Shown here piece by piece: positions 4,274-52,513 of a stretch of 64,000 nt of DNA. This DNA is from Candidatus Woesearchaeota archaeon (GTDB taxonomy: Archaea; Nanobdellota; Nanobdellia; Woesearchaeales; GW2011-AR4). A program made the position numbers and the translations under genes. Numbering within the stretch: position 1 is the stretch's first letter; each line of letters starts with the position of its first letter. The stretch spans positions 2,206-66,205 of the forward strand of contig JACPBQ010000002.1 of the NCBI GenBank assembly GCA_016180235.1, given 5' to 3'. The notes under the pieces were generated by a model, which saw nothing but the letters and a program-made list of their open reading frames with translations, was not told where the DNA came from and ran no database searches.

Positions 4274-4341
4274 CTTGCATAAAGTTACTACAAACTGATA
4301 ATTATTTTTCTCATTAAAACAACAATTTTCCATATCTTTGT

Positions 4342-4392
4342 CTCGGGATGCCGCAGGCATCCCAATACGCTAGTGTGCAGGCATGCACAAAA
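4342..4392 (+). promoter_or_regulatory. two-hairpin structured motif, copy 1 of 3
   Basis: GGGATGCC-gca-GGCATCCC, linker AATACGCTAG, TGTGCA-ggca-TGCACA. Differs from the copy at 43401-43449 at 2 linker positions over about 51 nt. Same architecture as 38138-38186. Confidence 0.7.
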
Positions 4393-4400
4393 AACAACAA

Positions 4401-4412
4401 ATTTTATAAAAT
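4401..4412 (+). promoter_or_regulatory. TATA-like box for glyS (leaderless-type spacing)
   Basis: attttataaaat centred about 27 nt upstream of the ATG at 4433. Confidence 0.45.
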
Positions 4413-4432: not shown

Positions 4433-5923
4433 ATGGAAAAATTAAGCATAGAGGACATGGCTGTTTTCTGCAAGAGGAAAGGTTTTGTCTATCCTTCCAG
4501 CGAGATATACGGCGGTTTTTCAGGATTCTGGGATTTTGGCCATTTGGGTGTTGAATTAAAGAACAACATAAAGGCAGAATGGTGGAGATACCATGTCCAG
4601 CAAAGAGAGGATATTGTCGGCATAGATGGCTCTATAATTACCCATCCGAAAGTGTGGCAGGCCAGCGGCCATGTCGAGAATTTTGAGGATATAATGCTGA
4701 AATGCTCAAAATGCAGGCAGGAAATAAGGGCAGACCATTTTATTGAGGAAAAATTAAAAACAAATGCAGAAGGCTCGAAGGTAAATGAAATAAACGATAT
4801 TATCAAAAAAAACAAATTGAAATGCCCAAGATGCAATTCCGATTTTGAAAAGATAGAGCAGTTCAATTTGATGCTTAAGACAAGCATTGGCCCGAAAGAG
4901 GACAAAAGCTCAGTATCCTACCTGAGGCCGGAGACAGCGCAATTGATATTTGCTGATTTCAAGCTGGTTGCTGATAATGCAAGATTAAAGCTTCCTTTTG
5001 GAATTGCACAAATCGGGAAAGGCTTCAGGAATGAAATAAGCCCAAGGGATTTTCTTTTCCGCTGCAGGGAATTTGAGATGATGGAAATAGAGTATTTTGC
5101 CCATCCGGAAAAAACCGATAAGTGCCCTTTCATAGACGAAATAAATGATGAAGAATTAAATTTCCTCACTGCAGAAATGCAGGAGAAAAAGCAAAATCCT
5201 ATAAGGATGAAAATAAAGGATGCATTGAAGAAAAAAATAATTTCGGAATGGCACGCTTACTGGCTGGCAACAGAGCAGAAATGGTTTGTAAATTTAGGGG
5301 CAAAGCAGGAAAACTTCAGGGTAAGGCAGCATCTGAAAAAAGAAAAAAGCCATTATGCCGTTGACACATGGGATTTAGAGTATAACTTCCCTTTCGGCTG
5401 GAAAGAGCTGCAGGGAATAGCTAACAGGGCTGATTTTGACCTGCAGCAGCACATGAAATTCTCAGGCAGTGATTTAAGCCTGTTTGACGAAGAAACAAAG
5501 AAAAAAATTGTTCCGCATGTTATAGCAGAGCCTTCCCAGGGAGTTGAAAGGGCTTTCCTTGTTTTTATGTTCGATGCCTACAATGATGACAAGAAAAGAG
5601 GGAATGTTGTCTTAAAATTGAACCCAAAACTTGCTCCAATAAAACTGGGGATATTCCCGTTGGTGAATAAATTAGATGATGAGGCAAAAAAAATATATGA
5701 TGCCTTAAAAAAAGATTTTAACTGCATTTTTGACAAATCGGGAAGCATTGGAAGAAGGTATGCAAGGGCCGATGAGACAGGAATTCCTTTTTGTATCACA
5801 ATTGATTTTGATACTCTGAAGGACAAGGCTGTTACAGTAAGGAATCGCGATGATACAAAGCAGGTAAGGGTAAAAATACAGGATTTAAATGAGACCATCT
5901 CCAAATTAATAAATAATCCATAA
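4433..5923 (+). CDS. glyS: glycyl-tRNA synthetase, archaeal/eukaryotic alpha2 type
   Basis: MEKLSIEDMAVFCKRKGFVYPSSEIYGGFSGFWDFGHLG, RPETAQLIF and FRNEISPRDFLFRCREFEMMEIEYF (class II motifs). I prefer the ATG at 4433 over the track GTG at 4373 because of the TATA spacing, and because the extension overlaps a repeat element. Confidence 0.9.
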   Translation: MEKLSIEDMAVFCKRKGFVYPSSEIYGGFSGFWDFGHLGVELKNNIKAEWWRYHVQQREDIVGIDGSIITHPKVWQASGHVENFEDIMLKCSKCRQEIRADHFIEEKLKTNAEGSKVNEINDIIKKNKLKCPRCNSDFEKIEQFNLMLKTSIGPKEDKSSVSYLRPETAQLIFADFKLVADNARLKLPFGIAQIGKGFRNEISPRDFLFRCREFEMMEIEYFAHPEKTDKCPFIDEINDEELNFLTAEMQEKKQNPIRMKIKDALKKKIISEWHAYWLATEQKWFVNLGAKQENFRVRQHLKKEKSHYAVDTWDLEYNFPFGWKELQGIANRADFDLQQHMKFSGSDLSLFDEETKKKIVPHVIAEPSQGVERAFLVFMFDAYNDDKKRGNVVLKLNPKLAPIKLGIFPLVNKLDDEAKKIYDALKKDFNCIFDKSGSIGRRYARADETGIPFCITIDFDTLKDKAVTVRNRDDTKQVRVKIQDLNETISKLINNP

Positions 5924-6448: not shown

Positions 6449-6661
6449 GGGATTTGATAAGCGCATGTTTTATCAGACTAAAAACCGTAGCTCAGACTGA
6501 GAAGACTGAGGTCTTCGGCTAAGGAGAGCATTTCAAAAATCTCAAACTACGCTGAAGACGTAGGTGATTGGTACAGGTATACTGGCCAACTTAAATCCTG
6601 GGTTCAAATATCCCAGAGGGCCATTAAAATCCCTCAGGATTTGAAATTCCCAGCGGTCCCA
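6449..6661 (+). tRNA. tRNA-Phe(GAA), interrupted by about five insertions (or a decayed pseudogene)
   Basis: Acceptor GGGA(6449-6452)+CCG(6485-6487) pairs with CGGTCCC(6654-6660), discriminator A. D-stem GCTC/GAGC. Perfect anticodon arm CTACG-CTGAAGA-CGTAG (6547-6563). T-arm CTGGG-TTCAAAT..CCCAG. Exon pieces sum to 74 nt and insertions to 139 nt. A T-run follows. Confidence 0.6.
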
Positions 6662-38083: not shown

Positions 38084-38137
38084 ACATTTAAAAAAGGCCA
38101 ATATTCTCTATCAAAATAAAAAAATCGTAAACTGCGT

Positions 38138-38186
38138 TTCGGGATATCGTAGATATCCCTAGACGCTGTTTTACGGGCACGTAAAA
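38138..38186 (+). promoter_or_regulatory. two-hairpin structured motif, copy 2 of 3 (abuts ileS ATG)
   Basis: GGGATATC-gta-GATATCCC, linker TAGACGCTG, TTTTACG-ggca-CGTAAAA, immediately followed by the ATG at 38187. Confidence 0.7.
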
Positions 38187-41100
38187 ATGGAAAAATATGA
38201 TCCTCTGAATCAGGAACCGGAAATATTGAAGTTCTGGAAAGACAATAAGCTGCATGAAAAAGCCAATCAGAAGAATGCAAAAGGCAAAAAGTTCTATTTC
38301 TGCGACGGGCCCCCATACACTTCCGGCAAGGTGCATCTTGGCACTGCATGGAACAAATCCCTGAAAGATTCCATTATCCGCTATAAGAGAATGCAGGGAT
38401 TTAACGTCCTGGACAGGGCAGGATACGACATGCATGGCCTGCCGACAGAGAATGCAGCAGAAAAAGAGCTCAAGATAAAAAACAAAGATGAAATCATGAA
38501 ATTTGGGGTTGACAAGTTCACAAAAGCCTGCAAGGACTTAAGCATAAGTAACCTTAAGATAATGAACCAGGACTTCATGCGCTTGGGCGTGTGGATGGAT
38601 TTTGAAAATGCATACCAGTCCGTGAGCAAAGAGTACATTGATGGCGAGTGGTGGCTTGTAAGGAAGGCGCACGATGCCAAAAGGCTTTATGAAGGCCTAA
38701 GGAGCATGGCATGGGACTGGAAAGACCAGACAGCCTTGGCAAAGCATGAGCTGGAATATAAGGATGTGAAAGACAAGTCAATTTTTGTAAAGATGCAGGT
38801 AAAAGGCAAAGAAAATGAGTTCCTGATAATCTGGACAACTACGCCATGGACAATAGCATTTAATCTGGGGATTATGGCTCATCCTGATTTTGAGTATGTA
38901 AAATGCAGAGTTGGAAGGGAATTCTGGATTGTCGCAAAGTCCCTTGCCTCTGTTTTCATTTCCGGAGTCGCTGGAAAAAAATTTGAGATAGTGGAGGAAT
39001 TCAGGGGCAGGGAGCTTGAAGGCATTGAATACGTTCATCCTTTTTTTAATGAGCTGAAGGAGCATTATGAAAGATTGAAGTCAAAGCACCCAAAAGTGCA
39101 TGCGGTTGTTTTAAGCGAGGAATATGTTGATACCAGCTCTGGCACAGGCTTGGTGCATATGGCCCCTGGCTGCGGTCCGGAAGATTATGAAGTTGGCCAC
39201 AGGAACAATATCCCGCCCTGGAATCTTGTCGAGGAAGATGGTGTTTATGGAAAAGCTATGGGAAAGTTTGCAGGAAGGCACGCAATAAAGGACAATTATT
39301 CTTTTGTAGAGGATTTGAAGGGAAAAAATGCAGTTGTGGGGGAAACAGAAGTTGAGCACTCCTATCCTCATGGCCAGAGGAGCCACCAGCCCGTCATATT
39401 CAGGACGACAAAGCAGTGGTTCTTTAAGGTCGAAGATATCAAGCAGGATATGATAAGGGAGAATAACGAGATAAAATGGGTTCCGACAGCAGGGTATAAT
39501 GCATTTAATTCCTGGCTGGAAAACTTAAGGGACAATTCAATTTCAAAGCAAAGGTATTGGGGCACTCCTGTTCCCATCTGGAGGAATATTGAGGATGAGG
39601 ATGATTATATTGTTATCGGCTCTATCCAAGAGCTGGAAGAATTATCGGGAAAAAAAGTCGATGAGCCGCATATACCCTGGATAGACAAGATTCTGATAGA
39701 AAAAAAAGGCAGGAAATACAAAAGGGTCCCGGATATCCTGGATGTTTGGGTAGATGCAGGCACAGCCTCATGGAATTCATTGAATTTCCCGCAAAACAAA
39801 GAAAACATGAAAAGGTATTTTCCCGCTGACTTCATTCTTGAGGGCAAGGACCAGATACGCGGATGGTTTAACCTGCTGCACGTCGCTTCAATGATTGCTT
39901 TAGGCAAAAAAAGCTTTGATGCTGCCTACATGCACGGTTTCATCAATGATGCGATGGGCAGGAAGATGTCCAAGAGCCTTGGAAATTATATTCTGCCTGA
40001 AGAAGTCATAGCAAAATACGGCGCTGACACCCTGAGGTATTACATGATTACCGGGGCAAATGCCGGGCTGGACCTGAACTATAATTTTGATGACATGAAG
40101 GTGAAGTACAGGAACCTTACAGTTTTGTGGAATATCCATAATTACATCATTGATTTGGCGAGGAACTCCGGCTTAAACCCAAAGGAAATTAAAATCAAAG
40201 CCGATGATATATCCATCGAGGAAAAATACATATTTTCAAAGCTCAACTCTGCAATAAGGAAAACAACAAAGCTGTATGACGGGTACAAGCTAAATGAGGC
40301 CCCTTTAATTGCTGAAGAATTGTTTTTGGCATTGAGCAGAATATATATCCAGATTACAAGGGAAAAATCAACGGACGAAAAAGCAAGGCAGGCAGTGTTA
40401 TATGCCATATACTATGTTTTTATGGGAATTTTGAAGCTGTTTGCCCCTGCCTCCCCTTTCATAACAGAAGCAATGTACCAGAATCTGAAGAAGGAATTTT
40501 CCCTGGAAGAGGAAAGCGTGCATCTTCTTGGCTGGCCGAAATGCATTGAGAAACTGATTAACAAAGGGTTAGAAGATGAGATGGACTCAATAAGCGAGGT
40601 TACCCAGTCGATATTGTCATTAAGGGAAAAGATAAGCATGGGCCAAAGATGGCCATTGCAGGAAGCCATTGTAGTTACAAAAGATGAGAAGACAATAAAA
40701 GCCGTTGAAAAGCTGAAAAGCATAATAAAAAGGCAGACCAATATAAAAGAGATAGAAATACAGCAGTCATTGCCAGGAATTAAAACAACAATAAAAGCGG
40801 ATTATTCGCAGCTGGGCCCGGATTTCGGAAAGAAGGCCCCGGAGATAATTGCAAAATTGATGGCAGAAAGCCCGGAAACTATCCTTAAGCATATAGAAAA
40901 AGACGGCAAATTCCCGTTAAAGATAGGCAAAGAAACTGTCAATATAGTCAAAGAGCATTTAATCGTGACAAGGAAAGTCCCTGAGCCGTATGTCGAAGGC
41001 TCGTTTAAATCCGGATTTGTTTATTTAAACAAGGACGTTGATGATGAGCTGGAAGCTGAGGGATTTGCCCGCGAACTTATGCGCCGCGTCCAGGCCCTGA

Positions 41101-42395: not shown

Positions 42396-43391
<996 letters not shown>

Positions 43392-43397
43392 CACCTA

Positions 43398-43449
43398 GTT
43401 TCGGGATGCCGCAGGCATCCCCAGACGCTAGTGTGCAGGCATGCACAAA
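43398..43449 (+). promoter_or_regulatory. two-hairpin structured motif, copy 3 of 3 (pyrB-pyrI spacer, abuts pyrI ATG)
   Basis: GGGATGCC-gca-GGCATCCC, linker CAGACGCTAG, TGTGCA-ggca-TGCACA, then aa and the ATG at 43450. Confidence 0.7.
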
Positions 43450-43902
43450 ATGAAAAAGGAAGTAAGCATATCGGCAATAAAGGAAGGGACTGTTATAGAC
43501 CATATTCCAAGCAATGTGACATTAAAGGTAGCTGAAATACTCAATCTTGATGATGTTGCAGGAATAATATCAATAGCCACTAACCTTCCAAGCAAGAAAA
43601 TGGCCAAGAAAGGCATAGTGAAAATAGGAGACAAGCTATTAACGCAGGATGAAGTCAATAAAATAGCAGTCATAGCCCCTGATGCCACGGTTAATATAAT
43701 AGAAAATTATAATGTAAAAAGAAAACTAAAAGTTTTATTGCCAGATATAATAGAAAAAATAGTCAAGTGCTCAAATCCAAACTGCATAACAAACAATGAA
43801 AAGGCAGAAACAAGGTTTTATGTTCTCAATAAGACTCCTTTGAAATTAAAGTGCCATTATTGCGAAAGGGCAATGAATAAGGAAGATATAGTGCTTTTGT
43901 AA
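43450..43902 (+). CDS. pyrI: aspartate carbamoyltransferase regulatory subunit
   Basis: MKKEVSISAIKEGTVIDHIP plus the zinc domain CSNPNCIT..CHYCE. The in-frame ATG at 43441 lies inside hairpin 2 of the motif. Confidence 0.9.
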   Translation: MKKEVSISAIKEGTVIDHIPSNVTLKVAEILNLDDVAGIISIATNLPSKKMAKKGIVKIGDKLLTQDEVNKIAVIAPDATVNIIENYNVKRKLKVLLPDIIEKIVKCSNPNCITNNEKAETRFYVLNKTPLKLKCHYCERAMNKEDIVLL

Positions 43903-43905
43903 AAA

Positions 43906-44808
43906 ATGCTTAATGTCAATTTATGCGGGATAAAGCTACGCAACCCGACTATTTTAGCTTCCGGGATTCTTGGGGTGACAAAAGAGTCTGTCAATAGAAT
44001 AGGAAAAAACGGAGCAGGAGCAGTAACATTAAAATCATTGTGCCACGAGGAAAGAAAAGGAAACGCAAATCCGACAATGTTTGGCTATGATGATGTTTTC
44101 TTCAATGCAGTTGGATTGCCGGGCCAGGGAATTGATAATGCGCTAAAGGACTTCAAGACTCTAAACAATCTAAGCATTCCTGTGATTGGCAGCATCTATG
44201 GCTACAGGATTGAGCATTTCGGCCAGGTAGCTAAAAAAATGGCTTCGTTAAGGCCCGCTATGATTGAGATAGACATTTCATGCCCTCACATGGATTATGG
44301 AAAGCCTTACTATGCTGATCCTGAATTGACTGCAAAAGTAACAAGGGAAGTAAAAAACAATGCAGGAAAAATCCCAGTAAGCGTCAAATTAAGCCCGAAT
44401 GTCTATGATATTAAGGAAATAGCAGTTGCAGCAGAAAAAGCAGGGGCAGATGCAATAACCGCAATCAACACAGCTACAGGCATGGCCATAGACATAGATG
44501 CAAGAAAGCCTGTATTGGCAAATAAAATTGGGGGAATTTCAGGCCCTGCTCTAAAGCCAATTGCTGTAAGATGCGTCTATGAAATCCATGAAGCAGTAAA
44601 AATCCCGATAATAGGCACTGGAGGAGTAACTTACGGCAAAGATGCGATTGAAATGGTAATGGCAGGAGCCACAGCAGTCGGCATTGGGACTGGAATTTAT
44701 TACAGAGGCCTGGATGTTTTCAAAAAAGTATGCGATGAGATGGAAGTATGGATGAAAAAGAACAGAATAAAGAATTTAGAGGAAATAAGGGGGATTGCGC
44801 ATAAATAA
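43906..44808 (+). CDS. pyrD: dihydroorotate dehydrogenase, class 1B catalytic subunit
   Basis: LKNPTILASGILG, VSVKLSPN, GADAITAINT, GTGGV. Followed by pyrK. Confidence 0.85.
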   Translation: MLNVNLCGIKLRNPTILASGILGVTKESVNRIGKNGAGAVTLKSLCHEERKGNANPTMFGYDDVFFNAVGLPGQGIDNALKDFKTLNNLSIPVIGSIYGYRIEHFGQVAKKMASLRPAMIEIDISCPHMDYGKPYYADPELTAKVTREVKNNAGKIPVSVKLSPNVYDIKEIAVAAEKAGADAITAINTATGMAIDIDARKPVLANKIGGISGPALKPIAVRCVYEIHEAVKIPIIGTGGVTYGKDAIEMVMAGATAVGIGTGIYYRGLDVFKKVCDEMEVWMKKNRIKNLEEIRGIAHK

Positions 44809-44809
44809 C

Positions 44810-45622
44810 ATGGAAAAAGACAATTGCTGCAGAACTGAAATCCCAAAAATAATGGAAATATTTAAAGTAGTGAATGAAGGCAAAGGCCAAAAATCTTTCT
44901 TTTTCAAAGGAAAAATCGATTCAAAGCCGGGGCAATTTGTCATGGTATGGCTTCCTGATGTTGATGAAAAGCCGATGGCAATATCATACTGGAATAAAAA
45001 TGAATTTGCCTTTACTTCACAGGTTGTCGGGAAATTTACAACATATTTAGACTCTTTGAAAAAAGGCGATAAAATCGGAATAAGGGGCCCTTACGGCAAT
45101 AATTTCTCGATTAAAGGCAATGCGTGCGTTGTAGCCGGAGGAGTAGGGGTGTCTTCTGTCTCAACTTTGATTGACTCATTGAAAAATCCGTTGATAATTT
45201 ACGGCGCAAGGACAAAACAGCATCTGATTTACTTAAAAAGGTACAAGAATAAAAAAATGCTCATAGCGACAGATGACGGCAGTCATGGAAGAAAAGGCTA
45301 TACAACGGATTTATTGAATGAAGTTCTAAGCAAAAATAGTAAAATAAAAATGGTCTATACCTGCGGCCCGGAAATAATGATGAAAAAAGTGTTAGATATA
45401 TGTAATAGTTATAAGATTGAATGCGAGGCTTCTGTTGAAAGAATGATGAAATGCGCGTATGGCGTTTGCGGAGCTTGCATGATTAACGACAAGATAGTCT
45501 GCATGGACGGCCCTGTTTTTAATTCAAAGCAGCTTAATGCAATGCCAGAATTCGGCAGTTTTGCAAGGGCAAAAACAGGAAAGAGAGTAAGTTTGCATGA
45601 ATACCATTCGATCCATTCATAA
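44810..45622 (+). CDS. pyrK: dihydroorotate dehydrogenase electron-transfer subunit
   Basis: FAD/NAD-binding fold (GGVGVSSV) and a C-terminal 2Fe-2S cluster CAYGVCGACM..C. I prefer the ATG at 44810 (1 nt after the pyrD stop) over the track TTG at 44795. Confidence 0.8.
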   Translation: MEKDNCCRTEIPKIMEIFKVVNEGKGQKSFFFKGKIDSKPGQFVMVWLPDVDEKPMAISYWNKNEFAFTSQVVGKFTTYLDSLKKGDKIGIRGPYGNNFSIKGNACVVAGGVGVSSVSTLIDSLKNPLIIYGARTKQHLIYLKRYKNKKMLIATDDGSHGRKGYTTDLLNEVLSKNSKIKMVYTCGPEIMMKKVLDICNSYKIECEASVERMMKCAYGVCGACMINDKIVCMDGPVFNSKQLNAMPEFGSFARAKTGKRVSLHEYHSIHS

Positions 45623-48809: not shown

Positions 48810-48953
48810 GGGCCCGTGGTCTAATCCGGCATGACGTTTCCTTCGCAGGGAAAAGACTCCGGGATGCTCGAAATTAGTTTTTCGGCACGGAAATTCAAAT
48901 ATCCCAGAGGGAGACTGCAAATCCATTGGGTTTTGAGAGTCCCGGCGGGTCCA
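48810..48953 (+). tRNA. tRNA-Ala(CGC) with two insertions flanking the T-loop
   Basis: GGGCCCG/CGGGTCC acceptor with G3:U70 (alanine identity pair). D-arm GTC-TAATCCGGCAT-GAC. Anticodon arm TTTCC-TTCGCAG-GGAAA. T-stem CCGGG(48859-63)/CCCGG(48941-45). TTCAAAT at 48894-48900. Insertions of 30 and 40 nt, and 74+70=144 nt. Confidence 0.75.
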
Positions 48954-52293: not shown

Positions 52294-52513
52294 GCCGACG
52301 TCGCATAACCTGGCATTGCGGTGGCCTTGAGAGCCACTTCCCGTAAGGGTATCTCGGTCAGCTTTTTTGCTTGCGCAAAAAACCTGGGAAAAACAGGGAA
52401 TTCCTCGTTTTTGCCCGGAATTCAAATTGCAGAGTAAGCAAATAGCTGGAGAAATTCAAATATCCCAGAGGGCAGCTAAAATCCCTCGGGATTTGGGAGT
52501 CCGGGCGTCGGCG
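52294..52513 (+). tRNA. tRNA-Ser(UGA), class II, with two insertions around the T-loop
   Basis: Acceptor GCCGACG/CGTCGGC, discriminator G. D-arm GCA-TAACCTGGCAT-TGC. Anticodon arm GTGGC-CTTGAGA-GCCAC. Long variable arm (CCC-gtaa-GGG). T-stem 3' CCGGG (52501-05). TTCAAAT at 52455-61. Insertions of about 97 and 39 nt. Confidence 0.7.

Follow-up and report, generated by a model that had tools for sequence, protein, structure and literature searches.

The pyrB-pyrI junction and its spacer

The DNA considered here, to which we refer as the window, is a stretch of 64,000 nucleotides from a Candidatus Woesearchaeota archaeon, with a GC content of about 40%, and belongs to a 1.04-Mb genome in nine contigs (G000). 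It contains a pyr operon in which the genes for the catalytic and the regulatory chain of ATCase, pyrB and pyrI, follow each other on the forward strand. An earlier, sequence-only reading of this locus had drawn attention to a two-hairpin element that fills the gap between the two genes, and the sequence is indeed as described there. The features relevant for the following discussion, including the two further copies of the element in the window, are:

42477..43391, + strand: pyrB, ATCase catalytic chain (open reading frame list; Pfam OTCace_N and OTCace)
43385..43389, + strand: left-junction AAAAT, recurring at 43447-43451; possible remnant of a target-site duplication
43389-43391, + strand: pyrB stop codon TAG (window sequence)
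43390..43449, + strand: inserted repeat copy of about 60 nt (covariance model R1: 84.6 bits, E 1.5e-17)
43403..43421, + strand: hairpin 1, GGGATGCC-GCA-GGCATCCC, with an 8-bp stem and the loop GCA
43432..43447, + strand: hairpin 2, TGTGCA-GGCA-TGCACA, with a 6-bp stem and the loop GGCA, followed by AA and then by the ATG at 43450
43441..43443, + strand: in-frame ATG within hairpin 2, straddling the border between loop and 3' arm; not the PyrI start
43450..43902, + strand: pyrI, ATCase regulatory chain, with the start MKKEVSISAIKEG (Pfam PyrI and PyrI_C; N-termini of 29 relatives)
4316..4405, + strand: glyS copy including its flanks (core 4338-4393), directly upstream of the glyS promoter
38113..38195, + strand: ileS copy including its flanks (core 38134-38189), between the ileS promoter and the ATG at 38187

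Six bases, followed by GTTTC, lie between the pyrB stop codon and hairpin 1, which can be extended by an outer helix GTTT/AGAC (43398-43401 / 43423-43426), and the linker CAGACGCTAG joins hairpin 1 to hairpin 2. In terms of the repeat family described below, the insert consists of a left extension AGCACC, a 56-nt core (model columns 1-56, corresponding to 43396-43451) and an A-rich tail. The start codon of pyrI was correctly placed at 43450 from the sequence, since the N-terminal MKKE... of PyrI from relatives aligns with this ATG. The other in-frame ATG, at 43441, does lie inside hairpin 2 as had been noted; it is, however, a piece of the repeat consensus GGCATGCACA and is found in every variant-1 copy, including the one upstream of glyS. 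Inspection of the pyrI-site element revealed no TATA-like or otherwise promoter-like box at the right distance, so that pyrI probably continues to be expressed as part of the operon transcript.

A dispersed hairpin repeat with a patchy distribution

A repeat search of the window returned three copies of the element (4340-4392, 38136-38188 and 43398-43450), confirming that the element of the pyrB-pyrI spacer recurs upstream of glyS and ileS; the 19-nt sequence of hairpin 1 occurs twice in the window, compared to zero expected from 100 shuffles. The covariance model built from these three copies (R1) identifies four strong copies in G000, the fourth one located before the gene of ribosomal protein uL1, along with weak partial modules. 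Among 60 relatives of the same family or order, matches were obtained in six, numbering 61, 49 (G021), 36 (G035), 7, 4 and 3 when weak ones are counted, and none below E 0.01 in the remaining 54. A search with a degenerate 50-nt pattern against 185,579 species genomes (one genome each) yielded 40 stretches in eight MAGs, which, bar exceptions, are labelled Woesearchaeota or Nanoarchaeota, with no placeable one outside Woesearchaeota. The labels of certain records differ: two repeat-carrying MAGs, which share contigs with G021 and G025, bear the title 'uncultured Methanosarcinales archaeon', and Thaumarchaeota is the label of one contig. Mislabelling, or the mis-binning of a contig, appears to be the reason.

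The genes located 3' of the copies are unrelated to one another and encode glycyl- and isoleucyl-tRNA synthetases (GlyRS and IleRS), PyrI, ribosomal proteins uL1, eS19 and eS8, a PDCD5-like DNA-binding protein, an ABC ATPase, TatD, PdxT and a trehalose-synthase-like glycosyltransferase. An all-against-all comparison of 378 open reading frames from 40 loci detected no recurrent open reading frame beside the copies. The whole window gave no Rfam match at the gathering score, with chance-level matches only (E above 5) for 43370-43470, and no tRNA or tmRNA was found in it. Our literature searches yielded no account of repeats of this kind, whether for Woesearchaeota or for other DPANN archaea.

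The core of the element comprises 56 nt, to which 0-20 nt are added at the left, and is made of two modules, hairpin 1 and hairpin 2. The repeat family is a mosaic of such modules; the reversed control of the hairpin-2 motif scan gave no matches. In G000, hairpin-2 modules without hairpin 1 were observed at C9:175718-175773, C9:888-903 and C5:70703-70718, including a tandem pair 40 nt apart.

Empty and filled sites

To judge whether the spacer is an ancestral part of the pyr operon, it is instructive to look at the same junction elsewhere. We measured the distance between the pyrB stop and the pyrI start in 29 relatives. In 16 of these, including the same-genus genome G001 as well as G021, which has its 49 matches elsewhere, the two genes overlap by ATGA (-4), leaving no spacer at all; in five more, the distance is -1 to +6 nt, and the remainder have assorted spacers or an intervening gene. 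The R1 element is found at this junction in none of the 29. Given the ATGA overlap in the relatives and the absence of the element from their junctions, the spacer in G000 is to be regarded as an insertion. The PyrB proteins of the relatives end with ...GK(I/V/A)K, the TGA stop overlapping the ATG of pyrI, and these junctions indicate an ancestral junction of the form ...ATAAAATGAAAAAGG. In G000, some 60 nt now separate ...ATAAAAT from ATGAAAAAGG, and the TAG stop codon consists of the T of the old junction and the AG of the insert, so that a stop is rebuilt and the length of PyrB is kept.

The same dispersed repeat sits at the pyrB-pyrI junction of a second, non-sister genome, G035, where ATGAAAAA is found on both sides of it and the left copy supplies the TGA of pyrB. 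The left copy in G000 appears to be about 11 nt shorter than that in G035, with only AAAAT left at pyrI. The pyr genes follow the species tree, PyrB of G000 being 78% identical to that of G035 and 83% identical to that of G001, and the pyrI-site copies of G000 and G035 are each nearest to a paralogue from their own genome (0.94 vs 0.86). Since the pyr genes of G035 are not the nearest to those of G000, the junction must have been filled either by two hits at a hot spot or by an old insertion followed by several precise losses; the latter possibility is kept alive by the unusual left edge, CACC|TAG, that both copies have in common.

The other two sites in the window tell a similar story. The glyS copy is flanked by AAAACAACAA(A)TTTT at 4316-4329 and 4391-4405 (13-15 nt) and precedes the glyS promoter, with a TATA box at 4402-4411 and the ATG at 4433. 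In 11 relatives, including the same-genus G001, the glyS site is empty and the promoter is uninterrupted; in G025 the site is filled and shows the same flanking duplication, and in both G000 and G025 it is the right duplicate alone that runs into the TATA box. At the ileS site, a plausible target duplication is AAAATAAAAAAA (38113-38124) / AAAATGGAAAAA (38184-38195), with 10 of 12 positions matching. The site is empty in G001 (TTTAAAAAAggccaaattttctcctcatccaATG, a leaderless promoter) and in many other relatives, and in G000 the ATG is separated from the ileS promoter by about 73 nt. Yet another case comes from an operon junction of G025 (L115), where ATGAAAG is found on each side of the element; the orthologous site of G000 is empty and contains a single ATGAAAG. 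The comparison of filled and empty sites shows that the element inserts, and flanking duplications of 7-15 nt are seen at several sites. An exact target duplication as a general feature was rejected: exact flanking repeats of at least 8 nt are seen in 6 of the 33 single copies, as compared to about 6% in controls with swapped flanks.

Register with respect to gene starts

The orientation and register of the copies with respect to gene starts are strict. In 16 of the 59 distinct copies, the ATG of an open reading frame of at least 80 aa overlaps the last model positions, that is, abuts the element, and in 19 of the 59 the ATG is found 30-52 nt downstream, mostly at 36-42 nt, the copy lying directly upstream of the BRE/TATA of a leaderless gene. 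In none of the 59 does a gene start abut the opposite end; the nearest divergent starts are at least 52 nt away and are mostly those of the other copy in an inverted pair. Such head-to-head pairs comprise 27 of 60 copies, always with the minus copy followed by the plus copy and with spacers of about -3 to 40 nt; in the high-copy genomes, around half of the copies are paired in this way, between divergent genes. All four copies in G000 are single.

The two registers can be understood from the way in which genes begin in this organism. A TATA-like box at -31 to -28 from the ATG is found for about 38% of the 887 long open reading frames of G000, and Shine-Dalgarno-like motifs at -15 to -9 for about 14%, positions -3 to -1 being A-rich; the organism is mostly leaderless. 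Hence, the two registers of the copies correspond to the start of leaderless transcription and translation and to the upstream edge of the BRE/TATA, respectively.

Folding and maintenance of the stems

When the 56-mers of the window copies are folded in isolation, two hairpins are obtained, with z = -3.5 to -5.6. In a 111-nt context, however, the minimum free energy fold of the pyrI copy is a single long hairpin (43391-43436, z = -2.8), in which GCAC from the left flank pairs with the 5' arm of hairpin 2 and both ATGs are unpaired. Hence, hairpin 2, and with it the two-hairpin form, is one of two alternative folds. Hairpin 1 forms in all 32 copies that were folded in context. The extended stem that competes with hairpin 2 is seen in the pyrI and ileS copies and in 11 of the 32 copies overall, as compared to 26% with swapped flanks, and was accordingly rejected as a family-wide feature.

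Both stems are well maintained across the family. In an alignment of 26 copies from seven genomes, 95% of the cells are paired, and 8 of the 18 pairs (five in hairpin 1 and three in hairpin 2) show compensatory change on both sides; the covariation score is 0.375 as compared to 0.176 in shuffles and at most 0.09 in slid controls. Within the window, the ileS copy differs from the others by compensatory changes in both stems. At sites shared across genomes (10 copy pairs), 22 stem pairs differ, of which 19 are compensatory, three are wobble and none is broken. Furthermore, the stems contain 13 G-U as against 3 A-C, an asymmetry indicating that folding takes place on the sense strand of the downstream gene.

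It is a different question by which process the stems are maintained. Some of the shared-site copies are nearest to each other, and others, both G000 cases included, are nearer to a paralogue from the same genome. Stem maintenance could reflect selection in place, gene conversion, or hot spots at which copies able to form the hairpins are inserted again and again. The integrity of the hairpins would be kept either for the sake of mobility or because only compactly folding inserts are tolerated before a start codon.

A probable MITE-like insertion between overlapping genes

Taken together, these data make it very probable that the pyrB-pyrI spacer is a copy of a short dispersed hairpin repeat that was inserted in a MITE-like manner, rather than a dedicated regulator of pyrimidine synthesis. 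The following chain of events can be envisaged. A copy of the repeat would have landed in the A-rich pyrB/pyrI junction, ...ATAAAATGAAAAA..., where most relatives have the ATGA overlap, and insertion at a staggered cut would have duplicated the target. The left duplicate would have preserved a stop codon for pyrB and would later have been shortened in G000, yielding the TAG from the T and the AG of the insert, while the right duplicate would have preserved an intact start codon of pyrI, the ATG at 43450. Such an insertion with duplication accounts for pyrB and pyrI now being 58 nt apart, with a strongly folding RNA in between, instead of overlapping; and it is the long staggered duplication, by leaving each gene with its own copy of the junction, that would make an insertion into an overlapping stop and start tolerable. 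The spread of the family would be MITE-like, perhaps with an IS481-like transposase acting in trans.

As to the consequences for the operon, ribosomes that terminate on pyrB would face a stable hairpin, the first base of which is the last base of the stop codon, and the AUG of pyrI follows 58 nt further on, 2 nt past hairpin 2. The insert would loosen the translational coupling of PyrI to PyrB; a looser coupling is likely from this geometry, and the output of PyrI may be lower or more variable. An effect on the PyrB:PyrI ratio may follow, and a side effect of the repeat on PyrI translation appears possible. A feature that sits less comfortably with the MITE-like explanation is the strong covariation, which the DDE route leaves unexplained, because a DDE enzyme needs no intra-strand hairpins.

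An unlikely alternative is that the inserted repeat has become a working RNA module, with the hairpin and the A-tract 5' of the AUG acting on the sense transcript. The module might serve as a signal for cleavage or entry and thereby provide an internal or leadered cistron with a leaderless-like 5' end, or it might be a stabilising cap against exonucleases; selection acting in place would then preserve its structure, both at pyrI and at the other sites. This would fit the absence of any broken pair among the 22 stem changes at shared sites, the 13 to 3 excess of G-U over A-C on the sense strand of the gene and the strict orientation and register relative to start codons. Moreover, in a mostly leaderless organism, a 60-75-nt ileS leader or pyrI spacer needs some route to translation, and the shared-site copies that are nearer to each other than to any paralogue are as expected under vertical inheritance with constraint. 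However, the absence of matches below E 0.01 from 54 of the 60 relatives, with 3-61 matches in the other six, leaves no conserved regulon; about one third of the copies lie upstream of the promoter and hence outside the downstream mRNA; the other shared-site copies, which are nearer to same-genome paralogues (0.94 vs 0.86), fit re-insertion or gene conversion; and the element has no match in Rfam. A related and more speculative proposal, which we consider doubtful, is that the hairpins and the A-tract constitute a portable start-site module (for example, one in which cleavage leaves a leaderless AUG and thereby rescues displaced cistrons), or else that the registers of +1 and about -38 result from integration guided by the archaeal pre-initiation complex, similar to that of Ty3 at Pol III starts.

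The sequence-only reading had suggested a device specific to the pyr operon, in which folding would hide the ATG at 43441 and the region before the ATG at 43450 so as to set the PyrB:PyrI ratio, or would mark a pyr-specific processing site. The element does lie exactly between the two cistrons, with hairpin 2 ending 2 nt before the start codon, and the same repeat occupies this junction in a second genome, G035. Nevertheless, we give this suggestion very little credence: it is largely refuted by the comparison with relatives, in which the conserved structure that was to be looked for in the pyrB-pyrI spacers is lacking from 29 of 29 junctions, 16 of them with the ATGA overlap. The repeat precedes many unrelated genes, the ATG at 43441 belongs to its consensus, and the minimum free energy fold in context leaves both ATGs single-stranded. 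Finally, it is scarcely credible that a dimeric transcription factor acts on the downstream genes by using the palindromes as double-stranded DNA operators, even though the arms of hairpin 1 form a perfect inverted repeat of 8 bp around a 3-bp spacer and copies occur at promoter edges or at the start of transcription, because the half-sites vary freely as long as they remain complementary (five covarying pairs in hairpin 1), the asymmetry of G-U over A-C implies single-strand folding, and the pyrI copy lies inside an operon.

The search for a mobilising enzyme

One lead comes from G025, where an IS481-like element is inserted within hairpin 2 of a repeat copy (L107, contig C10, 5493-6425). It encodes a 279-aa HTH-rve transposase (L107, 5521-6357), the best match of which is IS481 (NF033577, E 2e-52, full-length alignment), with a score of 178 bits, which is below the NCBIfam cut-off of 224 bits; the ends of the element are TGTGATGTCC(C/T)G, and it is flanked by a 15-bp duplication, GGGCACGTAAAAAAC. 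In G012 (L176), a transposase that is 71% identical is found together with the same ends and a 13-bp duplication. When hairpin 2 is read outward, it gives TGTG(C)ATG.CC(T/C)G / TGTACGTTCCCGTACA, so that TGTG....CC(C/T)G is in register with the ends of the IS481-like element, and the sizes of the duplications of the IS481-like element and of the repeat agree. The distributions of the two do not coincide, G012 having the insertion sequence and no copies of the repeat, and G021 having 49 matches and no such insertion sequence; the variant-2 copies end with TTTT/AAAA and not with TG/CA. On balance, we consider the IS481-like transposase a possible, although rather unlikely, mover of the repeat. 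The DDE_Tnp_1 and rve families showed no correlation with the element, and G021, with its 49 matches, contains no match to Y1_Tnp, RVT_1, DDE_Tnp_1 or rve, with the reservation that these searches for transposases and reverse transcriptases covered incomplete MAGs.

The combination of an A-rich 3' end, a variable left end and variable duplications brought target-primed reverse transcription into consideration. However, reverse transcriptase (PF00078) is absent from all seven carrier genomes, and a target-primed retroelement (non-LTR, SINE-like) was therefore rejected.

Another well-known route of dispersal is that of REP/REPIN-type repeats, which move as single-stranded DNA hairpins by means of a Y1 (HUH) transposase of the RAYT or IS200/IS605 kind. 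Several features of the repeat are reminiscent of these systems, namely, a short GC-rich palindrome in an AT-rich genome, REPIN-like head-to-head pairs with spacers of about -3 to 40 nt, covariation of the kind expected for hairpin recognition in single-stranded DNA and, in addition, the fact that Y1_Tnp genes are common in the family. Still, such a mechanism is very unlikely here. The occurrence of Y1_Tnp (PF01797) does not track the copy number, the family being absent from G021 and G035; no R1 copy lies within 1.5 kb of any of 12 Y1 genes; neither end of the element carries a GTAG/CGTC tag; and Y1 transposition proceeds without target duplication, whereas duplications of 7-15 nt are seen around the repeat. 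G000 itself contains a sole IS200/IS605-type Y1 transposase gene (C9:194521-194868, 147 aa, HUH motif HVHLF), with flanking hairpins of its own that are unrelated to the repeat. With a presence that does not follow copy number, no case of adjoining copies and unrelated hairpins in G000, the link to Y1/RAYT was rejected.

Comparison with known small repeats

The element works like a MITE or a REP-type small repeat, and it is useful to consider where the resemblance ends. The features of MITEs are present only in part. The element shares with them the small size, the lack of coding capacity, the intergenic location, the very patchy copy number between close relatives, the occurrence of filled and empty sites with 7-15-nt flanking duplications at some of them, and the long inverted ends of the head-to-head pairs. 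Terminal inverted repeats are found in the head-to-head pairs and in a few copies of the composition hairpin 2 - hairpin 1 - hairpin 2 (e.g. L077). Unlike in MITEs, most single copies, including the one at pyrI, have no inverted left end, and duplications are not seen at every copy. Furthermore, the candidate autonomous element, which is IS481-like and has similar ends, does not co-occur with the repeat, and hairpin covariation is not something that a DDE transposase requires.

The REP/BIME/REPIN elements (PMC3733652, PMC3116915) are likewise extragenic palindromes rich in GC, found as single units, as inverted pairs and as mosaic arrays; they are presumably transcribed as RNA hairpins and can sit between the cistrons of an operon; inverted pairs with a short spacer, as in REPINs, are found here as well. 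By definition, however, one end of a REP palindrome bears the conserved tetranucleotide GTAG or CGTC (PMC3733652). The element described here has no such tag: among the 26 copies, its ends are CAGTCTC... and ...ACAAAA, and GTAG occurs only as a variant of the hairpin 1 loop. It also differs from REPs in that it lacks an associated RAYT, resides in an archaeon, shows target duplications and is held strictly in orientation and register at start codons and promoters.

There is also a certain analogy with Correia elements of Neisseria and with ERIC, BOX and RUP, which are similarly small, gene-start-adjacent, co-transcribed repeats that fold as RNA and can alter the expression or processing of adjacent cistrons (see the review PMC3184786), as the repeat might do, although the sequences are unrelated and the hosts of those repeats are bacteria. 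No promoter-like box was seen in the woesearchaeotal repeat, which sets it apart from the Correia elements. The latter duplicate TA and carry promoter and IHF sites.

Implications

The pyrB-pyrI spacer is a case for caution: a structure between two cistrons that covaries and catches the eye can be a repeat of recent arrival and not an evolved regulator. At the same time, it shows how an insertion into a 4-nt overlap of stop and start codons can be survived, namely, by way of a target duplication that regenerates both the upstream stop and the downstream start. Where a genome measures about 1 Mb, has next to no intergenic DNA and makes mostly leaderless mRNAs, such repeats could be a real source of variation in expression, and they could provide a handle on the translation of leadered or uncoupled cistrons. 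If the start-site module reading, which we consider doubtful, were nonetheless true, a mostly leaderless DPANN archaeon could translate cistrons with a displaced promoter or a displaced overlap. The points that appear most important to us are the register relative to start codons, the rescue of an overlapping gene pair by duplication, and the strict maintenance of the hairpins.

Additional observations

Several features of the pyr genes and of the window deserve mention in their own right. In G009 (L067), a different, GC-rich insert of 189 nt (…GGGGGACGTCCCTTACGGGGAATGTCAGCC…) directly follows the conserved ATGA between pyrB and pyrI, which suggests that insertions may hit this junction repeatedly. 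In the genera g5, g9 and g11, PyrI carries a Lys/Arg-rich N-terminal extension of about 25-55 residues before ...ELxISAI (L053, L054, L057, L059, L062, L065-L067, L073 and L074); PyrI of the window's genus is without it. Further downstream in the operon, the start listed for pyrK, the electron-transfer subunit of dihydroorotate dehydrogenase, is a TTG at 44795 that overlaps pyrD (window 44795-44812); the ATG five codons downstream (MEKDNCC...) looks more likely. Lastly, the window harbours a second, unrelated family of 53-nt repeats (TTCAAATATCCCAGAGGG...AAATCCCTC.GGATTTG...), with copies at 6603-6655, 48894-48946 and 52455-52507 and at least one similar sequence elsewhere in the genome (C1, about 38454).
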